Position numbers and translations under genes: made by a program | Shown: in pieces, positions 709-53,778 of the stretch | Layout of the letters: each line of letters begins with the position of its first letter | Numbering within the stretch: the first letter of the stretch is position 1 | Source of the DNA: Escherichia phage vB_EcoM-E33 | Sequence record: OL780484.1 | Reading direction: 5' to 3' (one strand) | DNA: 64,000 nt | Notes under the pieces: model-generated | What the model was told of the DNA's origin: nothing | The model's input: only the letters and a program-made list of their open reading frames with translations | Database searches by the model: none

Positions 709-941
709 GTATTGCAATTTATATTAAATCTGAGTCATGTGATTCTTACCTGTATTCCTATGATACCGGAACATCAGAAGAGAAAATTAAAGAAGACTTA
801 GAAAGCGATATGGATATGTTCTGTCCTATTGGTGACTATATGCTTCAAGTGTCTGATAGTGAAAGTCCATCATCAGAAAATAGACTTCAAATTATTATGC
901 AAGATATTTTTAAACAATCATGGGAACGAGACGATGAGTAA
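705..941 (+). CDS. hypothetical acidic protein
   Basis: 78-aa ORF, start and stop both overlap neighbours. Confidence 0.45.
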   Translation: MSIAIYIKSESCDSYLYSYDTGTSEEKIKEDLESDMDMFCPIGDYMLQVSDSESPSSENRLQIIMQDIFKQSWERDDE

Positions 942-1383
942 GAAAGCTAAGGAATTATCGGCAGGTATTTTGTTCATGACCGTTGATAAAGAACTAGTTA
1001 TGGGTCGTGTAACAGGCTCTCGTAATCCAGAGAATATGCGTCATAAATGGGACATTCCTAAGGGTCATGTCGAACCAGGCGAAGAGCCTATTCAAGCGGC
1101 AATGCGCGAAACCGAAGAAGAGATTGGATTCACAGCATACGATCCTGCGTTCCTGAAAGACCTAGGTGAGTTCAAATATTCAAGCAATAAGAATCTACAT
1201 CTGTTCTTATATACAGTGCCTGTGGAACACGAGCAGTTCAAGGATTGCAAATGTACGGCTTACCATACGTTCCCTGATGGTCGTACTATTCCTGAATTCG
1301 ATGCTTTTGCCTTGATTAAACGGCCACAATGGGAATATGTCATGGGCCCGTCGATGTTTAAGGTTTTGGATTCACTCTTTTGA
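934..1383 (+). CDS. nudE: Nudix hydrolase
   Basis: Nudix box GHVEPGEEPIQAAMRETEEEIGF; start taken at internal ATG 934 (MSKKAKEL) overlapping upstream stop; immediately upstream of lysozyme as in T4. Confidence 0.8.
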   Translation: MSKKAKELSAGILFMTVDKELVMGRVTGSRNPENMRHKWDIPKGHVEPGEEPIQAAMRETEEEIGFTAYDPAFLKDLGEFKYSSNKNLHLFLYTVPVEHEQFKDCKCTAYHTFPDGRTIPEFDAFALIKRPQWEYVMGPSMFKVLDSLF

Positions 1384-2349: not shown

Positions 2350-2766
2350 ATGACTCGTATCAACCTTACCTTAGTATCTGAATTGGCTGACCAACACTTA
2401 ATGGCTGAATATCGTGAATTACCACGTGTTTTCGGTGCAGTTCGTAAGCATGTTGCTAATGGTAAACGTGTCCGTGATTTCAAAATCAGTCCTACTTTTA
2501 TCCTTGGCACAGGCCATGTTACATTCTTTTACGATAAGCTTGAATTTTTACGTAAGCGACAAATTGAGCTTATAGCCGAATGTTTAAAACGTGGTTTTAA
2601 TATCAAGGATACTACTGTCCAGGACATTAGTGACATTCCTCAGGAATTCCGTGGTGACTATACTCCACACGAAGCTTCTATTGCTATATCTCAGGCCCGT
2701 TTGGACGAAAAAATTGCACAACGCTCTACCTGGTACAAACATTACGGCAAGGCTATTTACGCTTAA
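2350..2766 (+). CDS. denV: endonuclease V (pyrimidine dimer DNA glycosylase)
   Basis: 138 aa; near-identical to remembered T4 endonuclease V ([28 protein letters not shown]...). Confidence 0.95.
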
Positions 2767-2808
2767 TTAAATCCGTGATAGAATACTTCTATCAACTTAA
2801 GGAATAAT

Positions 2809-3168
2809 ATGAAAACTTACCAACAATTTATTACTGAATCTACTCAGCGCATTAACGAAGCTATGTCTCCTGAACAATTGGCTAAGGCCAAAGAAGGGCT
2901 GAACCCATCTGAAGTTTTTAAAGTTACAGGTAAAGACTTTGCTTCCATGGCCACTAACCAGAGCTTGGCTAAAGAACTTAAATCTAAATCTAACTTCATT
3001 CATGCTACATGGAATGGTGATTCTCTTACTTCAATAAGTGTGTACAATAAAAAAGGTCTCCTTAAGAGTTCTTATGGCGCGGATGCCATCCGTGTTTCTA
3101 AATCAGATTGGCATAAAAACACTACTAAAGCAGAAAAACCTCATAACCCGGCACTAGACCATCTTTAA
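2809..3168 (+). CDS. internal head protein (Ip) with capsid targeting sequence
   Basis: N-terminus MKTYQQFITEST; 119 aa; first ~36 nt shared with the next gene. Confidence 0.65.
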   Translation: MKTYQQFITESTQRINEAMSPEQLAKAKEGLNPSEVFKVTGKDFASMATNQSLAKELKSKSNFIHATWNGDSLTSISVYNKKGLLKSSYGADAIRVSKSDWHKNTTKAEKPHNPALDHL

Positions 3169-3176
3169 GGCTTAAT

Positions 3177-3434
3177 ATGAAAACTTACCAAGAATTTATT
3201 ACAGAATCCACTTTAGTTTCTAAACGTTGGAATATGATTGTAAACGTTAAACCTTCCGGCACTGAAGTTTCTATGGCCGACCCTAATGATGACGAACTTG
3301 AGCACGCTTTTAGCTCTAAAGAAACTGACGAGAAAGTGGTTAAGCAACTGGTTGCTGATGCAGATCAACTTCGTAAAGTAGCAGATGTTGTTAAGCTGTT
3401 TACTAAGAAAGGTTTTAAACACGAAGAACGTTAA
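3177..3434 (+). CDS. internal head protein (Ip) with capsid targeting sequence
   Basis: N-terminus MKTYQEFITEST; 85 aa. Confidence 0.65.
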   Translation: MKTYQEFITESTLVSKRWNMIVNVKPSGTEVSMADPNDDELEHAFSSKETDEKVVKQLVADADQLRKVADVVKLFTKKGFKHEER

Positions 3435-6172: not shown

Positions 6173-6529
6173 ATGATTAAGCAGATGACTATAGCGCTTA
6201 TGTTGATTGCTCCGGGAGTATTAGCGTCACAAGTTGGTGATAGTAATAATTCAATTGTCGAGTATGCTACCCGTACAGCAAAAGATTATTGTCATCCGAG
6301 TAATACTGAATGCATTATCGAATTCAGTTCAAAAATCACAGCTGCTTTTAAAGATGGGCAGAACGACGTAGAGCATCGTCGAATGAAAGAGAAAACTCTT
6401 TCTAAAAGATACGAGCAACGTCTAAACGTTACTGAATGTATTCCATCTGATAAAAAGTACAAAGAAATGTGCGCGTCTATGGTAGACAGACTCGTTGACT
6501 CTTACAACCGAGGATTAAACTCTAAATGA
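6173..6529 (+). CDS. secreted hypothetical protein
   Basis: N-terminal signal peptide MIKQMTIALMLIAPGVLASQ; 118 aa. Confidence 0.45.
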   Translation: MIKQMTIALMLIAPGVLASQVGDSNNSIVEYATRTAKDYCHPSNTECIIEFSSKITAAFKDGQNDVEHRRMKEKTLSKRYEQRLNVTECIPSDKKYKEMCASMVDRLVDSYNRGLNSK

Positions 6530-6993
6530 TTATTGATTATATTAAGGGCGATATTGTCGCCCTATTTCTTCAAGGTAATAATGTTGCACACGGGTGCAAC
6601 TGTTTCCACACAATGGGTTCAGGTGTAGCTGGACAATTAGCTAAGGCTTATCCGCCTATTCTCGCTATCGATAAAACTACTTATTTAGGTAATTTGGCAA
6701 AACTTGGCACGTTTACTCAAGCCACAGGTAATAATGGCCAAATTTGCTATAATTTATATACCCAATACGAACCAGGCCCTAATCTTGATTATGGTGCTTT
6801 AGTAAACTGTATGATAGAATTAAATCAACAAGCAAAAGGTCTTTTGTTTAAACCAAGAATTTATATCCCTCGCATTGGTTGTGGTATTGCTGGTGGTGAT
6901 TGGGACAAGGTTTATCAATTGATTAATTTGTTTACTCCTGATATTAATTTAGTGGTGGTAGATTATGAAAGCCCATTACCCGCATCCGTTTGA
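6526..6993 (+). CDS. macro-domain protein (putative ADP-ribose binding/processing)
   Basis: GDIV...NVAHGCNC...MGSGVAGQL and PRIGCGIAGG resemble macro-domain signature motifs. Confidence 0.5.
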   Translation: MIIDYIKGDIVALFLQGNNVAHGCNCFHTMGSGVAGQLAKAYPPILAIDKTTYLGNLAKLGTFTQATGNNGQICYNLYTQYEPGPNLDYGALVNCMIELNQQAKGLLFKPRIYIPRIGCGIAGGDWDKVYQLINLFTPDINLVVVDYESPLPASV

Positions 6994-43834: not shown

Positions 43835-44038
43835 ATGCCTAAATTAGAGAAAGTAGTGTTTATTGGTTGGTTTGAAAATGGTAATATGTTTACCAAAGAA
43901 ACCGTTCTGGATGTTAGTGACCAAAATATGATTGAATGGGTTACAGTGCAGTATGCAGAAGTGAATAATGCGCTGGTGAAAGCCTTTGTTGATGACAATA
44001 AAGTTTTTGAGTGTGATTACCGTTCTAACGAAAAATAA
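43835..44038 (+). CDS. dmd: Dmd antitoxin (anti-RnlA/LsoA)
   Basis: 67 aa; KVVFxGWFxNxxMFTKE...TQYAEVNxALVKAFxDDxKV matches remembered T4 Dmd; position between 41 and 61. Confidence 0.6.
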   Translation: MPKLEKVVFIGWFENGNMFTKETVLDVSDQNMIEWVTVQYAEVNNALVKAFVDDNKVFECDYRSNEK

Positions 44039-49153: not shown

Positions 49154-49317
49154 CTACTGAAGAGGCCGAAAAACAAGCTAAAGAGGCACTGGATTTGCTT
49201 CTTAAAATTGGTAGTAAAATGATGAAAGAAAACGAGAAATACATCCAAGAAAATAAAATTCCGGATGGTCCTTTAGTAGGTAAACTAAGAAGAGGAAATC
49301 ATAATGAAAGTTTATGA
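49150..49317 (+). CDS. small hypothetical protein (55 aa)
   Basis: ATGA overlap with upstream stop; not in ORF track. Confidence 0.3.
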
Positions 49318-49792
49318 ACTAGAATTCCATGTACGTGATTCATCTGGACAGACACGTCCTTATGATGCTACAGTGTGTCTTATCTTTGTCGACAATGGTA
49401 CGAATTCTATAACCCAGTTAGAAACACGATTAAAAGATATTAAGCTTCCAGAAAATATTATGATGAAGGCTTACCATAACAAAAATGTTGATGTTGCTGA
49501 AGATTGTCCTTTTAGCCTGGCTGAAGCATTACATATCAAGGGTTATCGCCATCCGGACCCGTATGGCGAAGGAACAATGGACATTTTCTATAAAGATACC
49601 GATAGAATGTCCAACGAACGTCTTAAAGGTCGTACTTATCTTATTTCCGCTACCGAAGACCTTATTGAAGTTGAACGTCAGATTTGGAAGCACTTTGATA
49701 TTGGATTGCGCTTTACCATGACTGAAGACGCTATTCGTGATGCTAAGGTACGAGCTCGTATGTACGAGTACGGTCCTATCGGTGGTTACTAA
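49304..49792 (+). CDS. hypothetical protein
   Basis: 162-aa ORF. Confidence 0.45.
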
Positions 49793-49980
49793 TGGACTTA
49801 TTTGATATGTTTGTCATTCCGGACCCTGAGCCTGAAACAACTCAGGAGCCGCCTGTTGACCTTGTCAACGAACTTGATATGATTATACAGAAGCATGGTT
49901 TTAAGTTGCCTAAAGATGTTCTTAGTGACCTAGCTTCTTATTACTTAGACCCTCCACCCTGGGCTCCTTGGGTAAAATAA
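49792..49980 (+). CDS. hypothetical acidic protein
   Basis: 62-aa ORF. Confidence 0.4.
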   Translation: MDLFDMFVIPDPEPETTQEPPVDLVNELDMIIQKHGFKLPKDVLSDLASYYLDPPPWAPWVK

Positions 49981-49982
49981 AG

Positions 49983-50034
49983 TTTTACACCTCCTCCCTT
50001 CATGTTATAATGACCTCTAAATCACTGGAGGTCA
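49983..50034 (+). promoter_or_regulatory. early promoter (TTTTAC ... TATAAT 50006-50011) followed by inverted repeat TGACCTC/GAGGTCA containing the SD
   Basis: 7-bp arms at 50011-50017 and 50028-50034; SD GGAGGT lies in the 3' arm. Confidence 0.5.
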
Positions 50035-50035
50035 T

Positions 50036-50605
50036 ATGAACATCGAACAAAAATGTCTTTATCAAGACCGAATCAATTCCAAATTCTCAAAACACGAACA
50101 GAATCTTTTAGAAAAATGTCTGGATGCTAAAAAAGACCCTAACTTCCATTACGACCTTGACAAACTGGTTCGCAAGCATGTTACTTCAGCGGTTCCAGTA
50201 GAGTTGTATCGTGGGATTACCACCAGAGAACTTGAGCAATTAGAGCTCCTTTCAGTAGGGTGTCAATGGTCTCCTGGTCGAGTTACTTCTTTTAGTACAC
50301 AATACTCTCAGGCTCGTCAGTTCGCAGGGGCGTGGGAATATGGAACCAAAACCATTTTAAGTCTCAGGAATGCACCGTTCATTTTCGACTACTACAACCA
50401 TGCTATAGACCTTGTTCTTGCAGGGAATGTAGACGCCCTTGAAATTGATGAAACTCGTATTGACCTCTATGATATGGTCGAAACTGAATGTGAGTTCATG
50501 GTCTCTAGCCAATCGCGATTTGAGATTGTTGCAATCGAAACCGTCAAAAGAGACCCGTATGATATCGAGTACAAAACAATTCATTTAAAAATGTTGGATT
50601 TTTAG
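50036..50605 (+). CDS. Mod-type ADP-ribosyltransferase (ModA/ModB family)
   Basis: R-S-E motifs: LYRGI, SFS, ECEF; tandem paralog of the next gene; T4 mod-like position. Confidence 0.55.
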   Translation: MNIEQKCLYQDRINSKFSKHEQNLLEKCLDAKKDPNFHYDLDKLVRKHVTSAVPVELYRGITTRELEQLELLSVGCQWSPGRVTSFSTQYSQARQFAGAWEYGTKTILSLRNAPFIFDYYNHAIDLVLAGNVDALEIDETRIDLYDMVETECEFMVSSQSRFEIVAIETVKRDPYDIEYKTIHLKMLDF

Positions 50606-50659
50606 TTTACAGGCAAGGAAGCTTGTGGTACTATCTTTCTACCAACTGAGGAGAATAAT

Positions 50660-51274
50660 ATGTTATACCCTAACCACAGATTATCAGAGTTCTATGACAA
50701 TGTTAAGTGCGATGATTTCCGTGAAAACATTCAGTGTGAAATCGACCAGCAGTATTCTGATTTAGAACAGAGTACCCTCTGGCTGTGTATGGAAAATAAA
50801 CCGGATTGCATCCAAGAAACTCTGAATAAAATTATCCGTAAGAATCTGACTTCTGTAGTGCCTGACAAGCTGTACCGTGGAATTTCTAAGAAAACTTTGA
50901 AATACCTTGAATCGGTAGGATGTGTCGGCGCTACTATTGAATTTGACAGGGTAATGAGCTTCTCTAAAGATTTTAAGATTGCCCGTAATTTTGCTTCATA
51001 TAATTTTTACGGAACTAAAAATATTTTCTGTATTAACGATGCCCCCTTTGCATTTGATTATCAGGAAGCAATCTTTAAAATGATTTGTGGCGCTCCTCCC
51101 GAAGAGTTCAACGGGCCGTATCCTGAAATAACTCGAACTTCAAACTTACAACTAGTGAATGATGAGGATGAGATGATGTTCCCTGCGGGAACTACGCTGC
51201 GCGTAGACTCTATTGAGAAGGTTTATGGATGGCAAGATTATACATTATGGAATCTTTCCGTTCTTTCTTACTGA
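50660..51274 (+). CDS. Mod-type ADP-ribosyltransferase (ModA/ModB family)
   Basis: LYRGIS, SFS, DEDEMMF; paralog of 50036-50605. Confidence 0.55.
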   Translation: MLYPNHRLSEFYDNVKCDDFRENIQCEIDQQYSDLEQSTLWLCMENKPDCIQETLNKIIRKNLTSVVPDKLYRGISKKTLKYLESVGCVGATIEFDRVMSFSKDFKIARNFASYNFYGTKNIFCINDAPFAFDYQEAIFKMICGAPPEEFNGPYPEITRTSNLQLVNDEDEMMFPAGTTLRVDSIEKVYGWQDYTLWNLSVLSY

Positions 51275-51343
51275 ACCACCCGGTTTAATTGAAAGGCAAA
51301 GTCCTTGATTCATTATACCGTCGAAAATTTAAAGCAAAAAAGT

Positions 51344-51372
51344 GTTTACTTTATCAAGCAACATGATACTAT
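51344..51372 (+). promoter_or_regulatory. early promoter (GTTTAC ... TGATACTAT)
   Basis: -35 51344-51349, -10 51367-51372. Confidence 0.55.
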
Positions 51373-51414
51373 AGACACCTATCAACTAATCGTCCGTAAG
51401 ATGAGAAAAATACC

Positions 51415-52149
51415 ATGACCCCTGAATTTGAATTAAAGGTTTACAAACGTCGCGAACACACTAAAGCCTCTGCCAAAAAACGTGGTAAGGACTTCAATCT
51501 GTCTAGTAATTATGTTCGTAGACTTCTCGAACAAAAAGTGTGTGCTTATTCAGGCGAACGTTTTGATGAGAATTCAGTTAGTGATAAGATTTCATTTGAA
51601 CGTTTTAATAATGATATTGGTTATATCGAAGGTAATGTAATCCCAGTTAAAGTCAAGTACAATAGCTTACGTGCTGATTTGTCTTTAGATGAATTGAAAC
51701 GTGCACAGACTCGTTTAGCGTCCCGTATTTCAGGTGGTTCTAAAATGCCTAATAGTTTTAAAGTTACCCCAGATAATTATTATAAAATTCGTAAAATAGT
51801 TAAAAATATTAAAGATACCCAAAGAGGTCTTAAAAAGCGTGAAAAACGTCTTAAGGACCTTATTAAATCAGGAGCTACTGATAAGACCCCTTCTGTCATC
51901 GCGGTTAAGGCCCGTATCCATGGTTCTAACGCTTCAATAGGTACTATGGAAAAGGGTCTTAAATCTTTAATTGGTGGGCCTGATTGGCGTGTCAAGTTTA
52001 AATTGTCTGAAGCAGAAACGCGTTACGATATGTATGATAAAATTATTCAAGGTCTGGAGCGTTTAGAACACCTTTCTTTTATTGACAAAATGAAGTTGAA
52101 AAAAGGTCTTCCGCTGAATGCTTCAATTTTTTCACTGATTAGAGGTTAA
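51415..52149 (+). CDS. hypothetical protein (Srd-position)
   Basis: 244 aa between mod genes and dda, where T4 has srd; sequence not recognised. Confidence 0.4.
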   Translation: MTPEFELKVYKRREHTKASAKKRGKDFNLSSNYVRRLLEQKVCAYSGERFDENSVSDKISFERFNNDIGYIEGNVIPVKVKYNSLRADLSLDELKRAQTRLASRISGGSKMPNSFKVTPDNYYKIRKIVKNIKDTQRGLKKREKRLKDLIKSGATDKTPSVIAVKARIHGSNASIGTMEKGLKSLIGGPDWRVKFKLSEAETRYDMYDKIIQGLERLEHLSFIDKMKLKKGLPLNASIFSLIRG

Positions 52150-52150
52150 C

Positions 52151-52450
52151 GTGATGTACTATGCATACGTATTAGTTCACAAGGACAAAGACGGGTACGA
52201 AATTCCATTAGAAGAGGCCGGTGAGGTGACTTTGTATTCGACAAAGATTGGAGCCGATACCGCTCTATCCGTTTATGAAATGTCAACAAAAAGATATCTT
52301 CGGCTTGGACGCCTTGAAACGGTGTGCACACCTAGAAAATGGTGGTTTGATAAGTGGGAAACTAAAACAGTATATCCTACCGAAGAACGAGCCCGAGAAC
52401 TTAAATTAGTTTTAGACACTTTATATGTTAAGCGAGTAAAATTGGCATGA
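52151..52450 (+). CDS. hypothetical protein
   Basis: 99-aa ORF upstream of dda. Confidence 0.4.
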   Translation: MMYYAYVLVHKDKDGYEIPLEEAGEVTLYSTKIGADTALSVYEMSTKRYLRLGRLETVCTPRKWWFDKWETKTVYPTEERARELKLVLDTLYVKRVKLA

Positions 52451-53778
52451 TTACATTTGAAGACTTGAACATCGGCCAGAGGACGGCCTTTAAAGAAATC
52501 ATTGAAGCTATTAAACGACGTAAGGGCGAATGGATTACATTGAACGGCCCTGCTGGTACGGGTAAAACAACCCTTACCAAATTTATTCTTGACCATCTAG
52601 TCAAGAATGGTGAACTCGGAGTTATTTTGACTGCACCTACCCATGCGGCCAAAAAGGTGTTGTCGAAACTCGCAGGTCAAGAAGCATCAACAATCCATAG
52701 AATCTTAAAGATTAACCCTACTACGTACGAAGACCAGGACATCTTTGAACAACGCGAAGCTCCTGACTTGAGCAAATGTAACGTTCTGGTTGTTGATGAA
52801 GGCTCGATGATTGACGGTAAGCTGTTTAAGATTATCGAATCTTCAGTGCCACCATGGTGTACTGTATTAGGGATTGGCGACAGAGCTCAGCTACAGCCAG
52901 TGGAACCTGGAAGTGATGGTAGTCCACAGTTGTCTCCGTTCTTTACCCATCCAAAAATCAAGCAATTGCATTTGACCGAAGTAATGCGTAGCAATGCTCC
53001 AATCATTGAGGTTGCTACTGAAATCCGTAATGGTGGGTGGTTTAGAGATTGTGTATTCGAAGGACATGGTGTCCATGGTTTTAAATCCCAAACAGCATTA
53101 AAAGATTTTATGATGAATTATTTTTCCATTGTAAAAGATGCTGATGCCCTGTTTGAGAATAGGATGTTTGCTTATACCAATAAATCGGTTGAAAAGCTGA
53201 ATAGCATTATTCGTAAAAAGCTTTATGAAACCGATGCACCTTATATCAAGGGCGAAATCCTAGTGATGCAAGAGCCTTTTATGAAGGAACTTGAATACGA
53301 TGGTAAGAAATTCTCTGAAACCATTTTTAATAATGGACAAATGGTTCGTATTCTGGATGTGAACCATACCTCGTTGTTTTTGTCTGCTAAGGATGTAGGC
53401 ACTCGTCAAATGATTAATTACTGGGACCTGCAAGTAGAATCTGTTGATGAAGACGACGAGTACTATGTAGAGCATTTAAAGGTTATCGATGAGGCTTCAG
53501 TTGAGAAGTTCCATTATTTCTTGGCTAAGGTTGCTACAGAGTACAAAGCCATGCGTGGTAGTGGTAAGAAACCTAAGTGGGCTGATTTCTGGAAAGCCAA
53601 GCGAATGTTCAGTAAGGTTCGAGCTCTTCCTGTGAGCACTGTTCATAAATCCCAAGGACTTACAGTCCAAAACAGTTTCATCTATACTCCATGCATGCAT
53701 ATGGCTGATGCGAATTTAGCTTCACAGCTGGCTTATGTTAGTATTACTCGTGCTCGTACTGACGCCTACTACGTTTGA
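52447..53778 (+). CDS. dda: Dda DNA helicase (SF1B)
   Basis: 443 aa; Walker A GPAGTGKTT, AAPTHAAKK, colinear with remembered T4 Dda. Confidence 0.9.
   Translation: MITFEDLNIGQRTAFKEIIEAIKRRKGEWITLNGPAGTGKTTLTKFILDHLVKNGELGVILTAPTHAAKKVLSKLAGQEASTIHRILKINPTTYEDQDIFEQREAPDLSKCNVLVVDEGSMIDGKLFKIIESSVPPWCTVLGIGDRAQLQPVEPGSDGSPQLSPFFTHPKIKQLHLTEVMRSNAPIIEVATEIRNGGWFRDCVFEGHGVHGFKSQTALKDFMMNYFSIVKDADALFENRMFAYTNKSVEKLNSIIRKKLYETDAPYIKGEILVMQEPFMKELEYDGKKFSETIFNNGQMVRILDVNHTSLFLSAKDVGTRQMINYWDLQVESVDEDDEYYVEHLKVIDEASVEKFHYFLAKVATEYKAMRGSGKKPKWADFWKAKRMFSKVRALPVSTVHKSQGLTVQNSFIYTPCMHMADANLASQLAYVSITRARTDAYYV

Follow-up and report, generated by a model that had tools for sequence, protein, structure and literature searches.

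A tandem pair of predicted Mod-type ADP-ribosyltransferase genes in the T4 modB/modA arrangement of the Dhakavirus phage vB_EcoM-E33

The ModA and ModB proteins of phage T4 are early proteins with distinct reported targets: ModA ADP-ribosylates Arg265 of both alpha subunits of RNA polymerase, while ModB modifies proteins of the translation apparatus such as S1 and trigger factor (PMC2988021) and can also join NAD-capped RNA to the ribosomal proteins S1 and L2 (PMC10468400). These target specificities have been established for T4 alone (PMC10468400, PMC2988021), and no crystal structure of ModB exists (bioRxiv 10.1101/2025.07.11.664405). We analysed a stretch of 64,000 nucleotides from Escherichia phage vB_EcoM-E33 (sequence record OL780484.1; referred to as the window in the rest of the text), a Dhakavirus of the Straboviridae/Tevenvirinae, in which an earlier note had described two adjacent proteins of 189 and 204 amino acids as paralogous Mod-type ADP-ribosyltransferases (ARTs). 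The two open reading frames (ORFs), hereafter ORF1 and ORF2, sit on the plus strand exactly where that note had placed them (Table 1). Their identification as tandem Mod-type ARTs of the R-S-E clade in the T4 modB/modA arrangement is supported by alignments with the T4 proteins, conserved catalytic residues, predicted folds and gene order.

Gene order and similarity to the T4 Mod family

The mod pair of the window is embedded in the order modA.3-modA.2-ORF1-ORF2-srd-dda.1-dda, which is the order of T4 and of the Dhakavirus phage Bp7. The resemblance to the T4 arrangement claimed in the earlier note thus holds, as T4 modB and modA likewise lie between modA.2 and srd: T4 ModB is the upstream member of the pair, between modA.2 and modA, as is ORF1, and T4 ModA is the downstream member, directly before srd, as is ORF2. 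The same order and flanking genes also occur in Mosigvirus and Gaprivervirus, and a Pfam Phage_Y01A match (E 1e-26) was found among the downstream srd, dda.1 and dda anchors. Each start codon is preceded by a Shine-Dalgarno-like sequence (GGAGG, 4 bases 5′ of the ATG of ORF1; GAGGAG, 6 bases 5′ of the ATG of ORF2). In T4, modB and modA share 4 nt at their junction, whereas a 54-nt spacer holding the second promoter-like site of Table 1 lies between ORF1 and ORF2; the corresponding spacer is 57 nt in Mosigvirus and 44 nt in Gaprivervirus.

Table 1. Genes and promoter-like sites of the window considered in this analysis.
Feature	Position	Strand	Description
NudE-type Nudix hydrolase	934-1383	+	Pfam NUDIX E 7.6e-15
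Macro-domain protein	6526-6993	+	Pfam Macro 33.4 bits (cut-off 22)
ORF of 105-109 aa	43505-43834 (probable ATG 43517)	+	directly abuts dmd
dmd	43835-44038	+	Pfam Dmd E 4.7e-22
ORF of 146 aa	44385-44825	+	upstream of primase; PHROG of unknown function (phrog_8539)
modA.3 (Mrh-like)	49304-49792	+	upstream synteny anchor; Pfam T4_MRH E 4e-45
modA.2	49792-49980	+	upstream synteny anchor; collinear with Bp7 and T4
Promoter-like site	49984-50011	+	sigma-70/T4-early-type match TTTACA-16-TATAAT, TG-extended; 11/12 consensus, pattern only
ORF1 (modB position)	50036-50605	+	189 aa, predicted Mod-family arginine ADP-ribosyltransferase
Promoter-like site	50606-50634	+	early-type match GTTTACA-17-TACTAT, TG-extended; 9/12, pattern only
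ORF2 (modA position)	50660-51274	+	204 aa, predicted Mod-family arginine ADP-ribosyltransferase
Promoter-like site of srd	about 51345-51374		GTTTAC-type early promoter match
srd	51415-52149	+	downstream synteny anchor; PHROG Srd E 5e-93
dda.1	52151-52450	+	downstream synteny anchor; same order in T4 and Bp7
dda helicase	52447-53778	+	downstream synteny anchor; same order in T4 and Bp7

A block of 3.15 kb around the pair is 93-96% identical at the nucleotide level to the Dhakavirus genomes LQ5, MX01, Bp7, QL01 and others, whose copies are annotated as modB/modA or as 'RNA polymerase ADP-ribosylase'. ORF1 shares 99.5% protein identity with ModB of Bp7, and ORF2 is 100% identical to a protein encoded by LQ5, whereas the allele at the ModA position of Bp7 differs from ORF2 (81% nucleotide identity, 30 amino-acid differences). 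Since Bp7 carries an annotated modB of such similarity in a gene order matching that of T4, the mod pair of Dhakavirus is not new, public genomes of the genus already carrying its annotation. Using ORF1, ORF2, T4 ModA and T4 ModB as tblastn queries, we found no third Mod paralogue and no Alt-like gene in the window.

Among the phages compared, only those of the Escherichia coli-infecting genera Tequatrovirus, Mosigvirus, Gaprivervirus and Dhakavirus had two mod genes. A single mod gene precedes srd in Winklervirus X20, Klebsiella phages kv_tblp8 and Roth21, Karamvirus myPSH1140 and Krischvirus GoldenSnicker. In kv_tblp8 the lone mod gene is directly followed by a dmd gene (2456-3318 of the kv_tblp8 stretch), an adjacency that agrees with the pairing of Mod-like ARTs with Dmd described by Iyer et al. 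(PMC9503650).

The earlier note had proposed that its assignment be checked by alignment to T4 ModA and ModB. We took both sequences from NC_000866 for direct comparison, and both window proteins showed significant similarity to them. ORF1 is 34% identical to T4 ModB (NP_049636, 207 aa; E 3e-24, 82 bits) and 25% identical to T4 ModA (NP_049635, 200 aa; E 7e-07, 34 bits). ORF2 is 35% identical to T4 ModB (E 4e-26, 87 bits) and 33% identical to T4 ModA (E 4e-21, 74 bits), the latter alignment covering residues 1-199 and thus nearly the full length. ORF1 and T4 ModB are of similar size and both have an acidic isoelectric point (pI), the N terminus of ORF1 being shorter by 18 aa. ORF1 and ORF2 are paralogues of one another (BLASTP, 36% identity over 169 aa, E 8e-26), and both match PHROG 832, 'RNA polymerase ADP-ribosylase' (E 2.5e-37 for ORF1 and 3.9e-41 for ORF2), with scores that chance would not produce.

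An exhaustive profile search of 1.84 billion proteins, each representing a cluster at 50% identity, returned only 59 clusters at E <0.001. The stronger matches (E below about 1e-10) were mostly proteins of roughly 150-230 aa, and two of the four large multi-domain matches that we scanned carry Pfam ART or ADPrib_exo_Tox domains, thereby linking the Mod family to the R-S-E clade, with no gain in functional insight. The Pfam domain PF26816.1 is precomputed on all database homologues, and its model is unmatched in our local Pfam-A, which, in its content or its thresholds, is apparently behind the precomputed annotation of the homologues.

Catalytic residues, predicted fold and proposed activity

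All of the R-S-E motifs that the earlier note had reported as shared (LYRGI, SFS and E-x-E) are present in both ORFs, in the contexts E-LYRGI-T, T-SFS-T and E-C-E in ORF1 and K-LYRGI-S, M-SFS-K and E-D-E in ORF2. The loss of catalytic residues, which the note had named as evidence that would speak against its proposal, was not observed upon alignment with T4: R59 (followed by G60), S85-F86-S87 and E151-C152-E153 of ORF1, as well as R73, S100-F101-S102 and E169-D170-E171 of ORF2, are matched by R73 (followed by G74), S99-F-T101 and E171-Q-E173 of T4 ModB and by R72, S96-A-S98 and E163-Q-E165 of T4 ModA. T4 ModA differs from ORF2 in having W-R-G in place of Y-R-G and S-A-S in place of S-F-S. We extended the alignment to 13 Mod proteins from nine phages (T4, the window, Mosigvirus, Gaprivervirus, Winklervirus, Karamvirus, Krischvirus and two Klebsiella phages), in which the arginine, the S-x-S/T strand and both glutamates of ExE were invariant (13/13). 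R73 of T4 ModB is the residue mutated for inactivation (PMC10468400), R73 being described as crucial for substrate binding and E173 for catalysis (bioRxiv 10.1101/2025.07.11.664405). The presence of E-x-E, and not Q-x-E, is the signature of the arginine-specific enzymes of the R-S-E clade (PMC10468400).

Both predicted models fold confidently as ARTs, with a low-confidence loop noted at residues 133-135 of ORF1, and the modelled fold of ORF1 and ORF2 is C3/VIP2-like, matching that of R-S-E ADP-ribosyltransferases. The bacterial C3, VIP2 and iota-type R-S-E toxins (for example 1ojz, 1qs1, 5gtt and 4xzj) share only 13-19% identity with the phage Mod proteins, which, unlike these toxins, are small, intracellular and presumably early, and have no secretion or translocation domains. 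The intact motifs, together with the purifying selection described below, support the prediction that ORF1 and ORF2 are catalytically competent.

The sigma-70/T4-early-type match upstream of ORF1 was the best of a 6-kb promoter scan, and the region holds 22 promoter-pattern matches compared to a mean of 16.2 in shuffled sequence, a modest excess. srd has an early promoter match of its own, as do modB and modA.

We consider it very probable that ORF1 and ORF2 are the modB and modA genes of Dhakavirus and code for NAD+-dependent, arginine-specific R-S-E mono-ADP-ribosyltransferases that act early on host proteins, a reading drawn from sequence, predicted models and analogy with T4. Both genes would be transcribed by the host RNA polymerase soon after infection. 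R59 in ORF1 or R73 in ORF2 would bind NAD+ together with the S-x-S strand, and the second glutamate of ExE (E153 or E171) would catalyse the transfer of ADP-ribose onto arginine side chains of host proteins. If the division of labour is that of T4, the target of ORF2 would be Arg265 of both alpha subunits of RNA polymerase, and those of ORF1 would be the translation proteins S1, EF-Tu and trigger factor. The attachment of NAD-capped RNA to proteins ('RNAylation') might be a further activity of ORF1.

Orthology with T4 ModA and ModB and allelic diversity of ORF2

The naming of ORF1 as ModB and of ORF2 as ModA fits part of the T4 comparison: T4 ModB is a far better match for ORF1 than T4 ModA is (82 versus 34 bits), and T4 ModA used as a tblastn query matched only ORF2 in the window. 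A neighbour-joining (NJ) tree computed from 186 columns with 300 bootstraps grouped the upstream genes of the window and Mosigvirus at 100%, and the downstream genes of the window, Gaprivervirus and Mosigvirus likewise at 100%. Size, pI and net charge did not separate ModA-like from ModB-like proteins. The labels are positional and weaker than they look, and the deep nodes of the tree have bootstrap values of 3-42%.

Several observations weigh against the identification of the pair as Dhakavirus modB and modA with the activities proposed above. Neither ORF1 nor ORF2 matched any family in the local Pfam-A and NCBIfam libraries, and ORF1 lacks about 15-20 N-terminal residues that are found in ORF2, T4 ModA and T4 ModB. 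Searches of PDB sequences with the single proteins and with a 23-sequence profile gave nothing significant (the best matches were to TrmB, E 0.024, and to a segment of PARP4 outside the ART, E 0.09), so that the fold assignment rests on the predicted models. The promoter-like sites at modB and modA are consensus matches only. In addition, T4 ModB gives a slightly better score with ORF2 than T4 ModA does (87 versus 74 bits), which makes the best hits asymmetric. In the NJ tree, T4 ModA and ModB attach with 3-41% support, the range being 3-66% when the upstream gene of Gaprivervirus and the genes of single-copy phages are included. Because ORF1 and ORF2 share only 25-35% identity with the T4 enzymes and their orthology is based on position, the target assignments of ORF1 and ORF2, made by analogy, are the weakest step of the explanation, and the T4 specificities are not to be transferred with confidence. 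We know of no published specificity-determining residues of ModA or ModB against which the window proteins could be checked.

A possibility that we regard as tenable yet clearly the less probable one is that both genes code for active Mod-family ARTs that are not one-to-one orthologues of T4 ModB and ModA; their targets would then differ from those of T4, and their labels would be positional only. Such a situation could have arisen by lineage-specific duplication, gene conversion or allele replacement. Besides the higher score of ORF2 against T4 ModB, it is favoured by the identity between ORF1 and ORF2 (36%), which is on par with the identity of each to T4 ModB, by the placement of T4 ModA and ModB in neither the upstream nor the downstream NJ clade, and by the single mod gene of several genera, which has about 40% identity to each of the two copies. 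At the resolution of the tree, the upstream copy of Gaprivervirus is also unrelated to the Dhakavirus/Mosigvirus upstream clade, and replacement of the ORF2 allele is seen within Dhakavirus (see below). However, gene order and flanking genes are common to Tequatrovirus, Mosigvirus, Gaprivervirus and Dhakavirus, T4 ModA matches ORF2 alone in the window and ORF1 is clearly nearer to ModB; the shared order and the pattern of T4 matches would fit a single old duplication followed by fast evolution of T4 ModA. An NJ tree on so few columns is weak evidence in either direction.

The comparison with Bp7 revealed a marked difference between the two genes. ORF1 is 99.8% identical to its Bp7 counterpart at the nucleotide level and differs from Bp7 ModB by one residue, while ORF2 is 81.3% identical. 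Local identity to Bp7 is 99-100% across 50001-50600, falls to 69-85% in an island at 50801-51300 that lies inside ORF2, and exceeds 96% at 51301-51400. Between ORF2 and the Bp7 allele, synonymous divergence (dS) is about 1.0 and the ratio of nonsynonymous to synonymous divergence (dN/dS) is about 0.10. In phage records, proteins at least 90% identical to ORF1 were found in 49, while proteins at least 95% identical to ORF2 were found in only seven, a further class with 80-90% identity being found in 52. This pattern suggests allele exchange at the modA-position gene only and, judged by these comparisons, ORF2 circulates as divergent alleles among otherwise near-identical phages. Such diversity would fit a gene engaged in host-specific conflict (compare PMC9503650).

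It is accordingly conceivable, though we think it unlikely, that one or both enzymes have been selected mainly for counter-defence and would ADP-ribosylate host immunity or toxin proteins instead of reprogramming transcription and translation, the diversity of ORF2 being the outcome of an arms race. Iyer et al. described viral ARTs as fast-evolving conflict genes (PMC9503650), and a recent preprint reported that T4 Alt helps evade the type I Mokosh system, with the ModA orthologue bas37_0131 labelled in the plot of the Mokosh screen (preprint bioRxiv 10.1101/2025.11.20.689424). The divergence island in ORF2, bordered by sequence of 97-100% identity and next to a near-identical ORF1, and the spread of ORF2 alleles in phage records point in the same direction. 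On the other hand, a pairwise dN/dS of 0.10 indicates purifying, not diversifying, selection on the exchanged alleles, and a counter-defence role would be compatible with the identification of the pair as Mod-type ARTs rather than exclusive of it. In a related and equally doubtful scenario, the Dhakavirus enzymes may split their host targets in a manner unlike T4 ModA and ModB, for example with both being ModB-like, or with ORF2 acting on defence proteins or in RNAylation; the divergent ORF2 alleles would then reflect host-specific adaptation of a counter-defence effector.

That one of the two proteins has lost catalysis and is retained as a pseudo-enzyme with a binding or regulatory role is highly improbable: loss of activity is frequent in duplicated enzymes, and ORF1 has a shorter N terminus and a low-confidence loop, but the R, S-x-S/T and ExE residues are intact in both copies and in all homologues compared, and both models are confident ART folds.

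The macro-domain gene, other ADP-ribose-related genes and significance

The earlier note had further proposed that, together with a macro-domain protein encoded elsewhere in the window, the phage has both writers and a potential eraser or reader of ADP-ribosylation. The part of this proposal that stands is that the Mod pair and a real macro domain coexist; a functional pairing of the two is unsupported. The macro-domain protein shares 53% identity with T4 Tk.4 (E 8e-63), and its gene lies in the neighbourhood vs-tk.4-tk.3-tk.2-tk, as in Bp7, T4 having the same order with an additional tk.1. By similarity and position it is the orthologue of T4 Tk.4 (AdfM). According to a 2025 preprint, tk.4 is the single T4 gene needed against host DarTG2, a clean knockout being sensitised, and was renamed adfM, its authors proposing removal of ADP-ribose from DNA (bioRxiv 10.1101/2025.11.20.689424). 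The sole NCBIfam match of the window protein is the macrodomain of the DarG antitoxin (E 2e-4, far below the cut-off), a weak similarity that is consistent with the anti-DarTG2 role of T4 tk.4.

We therefore reject as unsupported, and hold to be very improbable, the view that the Mod enzymes and the macro protein form a dedicated writer/eraser pair acting on the same marks. Both types of gene occur in one genome, and macrodomains in general bind and hydrolyse ADP-ribose. However, apart from the orthology with Tk.4, which in T4 probably removes ADP-ribose from DNA, and the similarity to DarG, the macro gene lies 43 kb from the mod genes in a different gene block. Phage records with homologues of it number 2827 and extend to phages of Pseudomonas, Vibrio and Acinetobacter, while Mod matches were found in 1069 records, mostly of enterobacterial phages, these three names not being among the ten most frequent organism names. 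To our knowledge, macrodomains do not typically remove arginine-linked ADP-ribose. Removal from arginine is documented for ARH1 (bioRxiv 10.1101/2025.07.11.664405), and the macro protein is unlikely to be an eraser of the arginine ADP-ribosylation that the Mod enzymes would produce.

Some other genes of the window touch on ADP-ribose. The ORF directly preceding dmd belongs to phrog_2110 (E 2e-59), which is conserved and of unknown function, has a weak sub-threshold Pfam match to the rifampin ADP-ribosyltransferase Arr-ms (E 0.044) and contains the sequence YYHGS...IYAG...HAE. Pairs consisting of a 'p0068-family ART toxin + Dmd antitoxin' have been described in Escherichia, Shigella and Salmonella phages (Iyer et al., PMC9503650), and this ORF and dmd may constitute such a pair, in which case the ORF would be a third candidate ADP-ribosyltransferase in the window. 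The gene for the NudE-type Nudix hydrolase adjoins the lysozyme gene e, as in Bp7 and T4; since ADP-ribose is one of the substrates reported for T4 NudE (PMC9503650), this is another gene of the window related to NAD or ADP-ribose. The 146-aa ORF upstream of the primase gene comes just after a signal-peptide-like ORF of 97 aa, which occupies the place of sp (spackle) in Bp7. Similarity of the 146-aa protein to Pfam AdfA (anti-DarT factor A; E 0.007) is confined to its last 14 residues, which align with the C-terminal end of the family; the match is below the cut-off and too weak to call. Finally, the N-terminal roughly 120 residues of Srd match PHROGs of HNH endonuclease and endonuclease VII (E 1e-16), and 'HNH endonuclease' is also the annotation of the Srd homologue in Klebsiella phage Roth21.

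For the annotation of other phages, the comparison implies that the modA and modB labels are positional outside Tequatrovirus and that neither the T4 targets nor RNAylation by ModB, an activity of biotechnological interest, should be assumed at 25-35% identity. For the macro-domain gene, counter-defence against host DarTG2 is a better reading than a partnership with the Mod enzymes. As for the pair itself, which represents routine annotation and not a discovery, it very probably means that vB_EcoM-E33 keeps the T-even toolkit for chemically rewiring the transcription and translation of its host.

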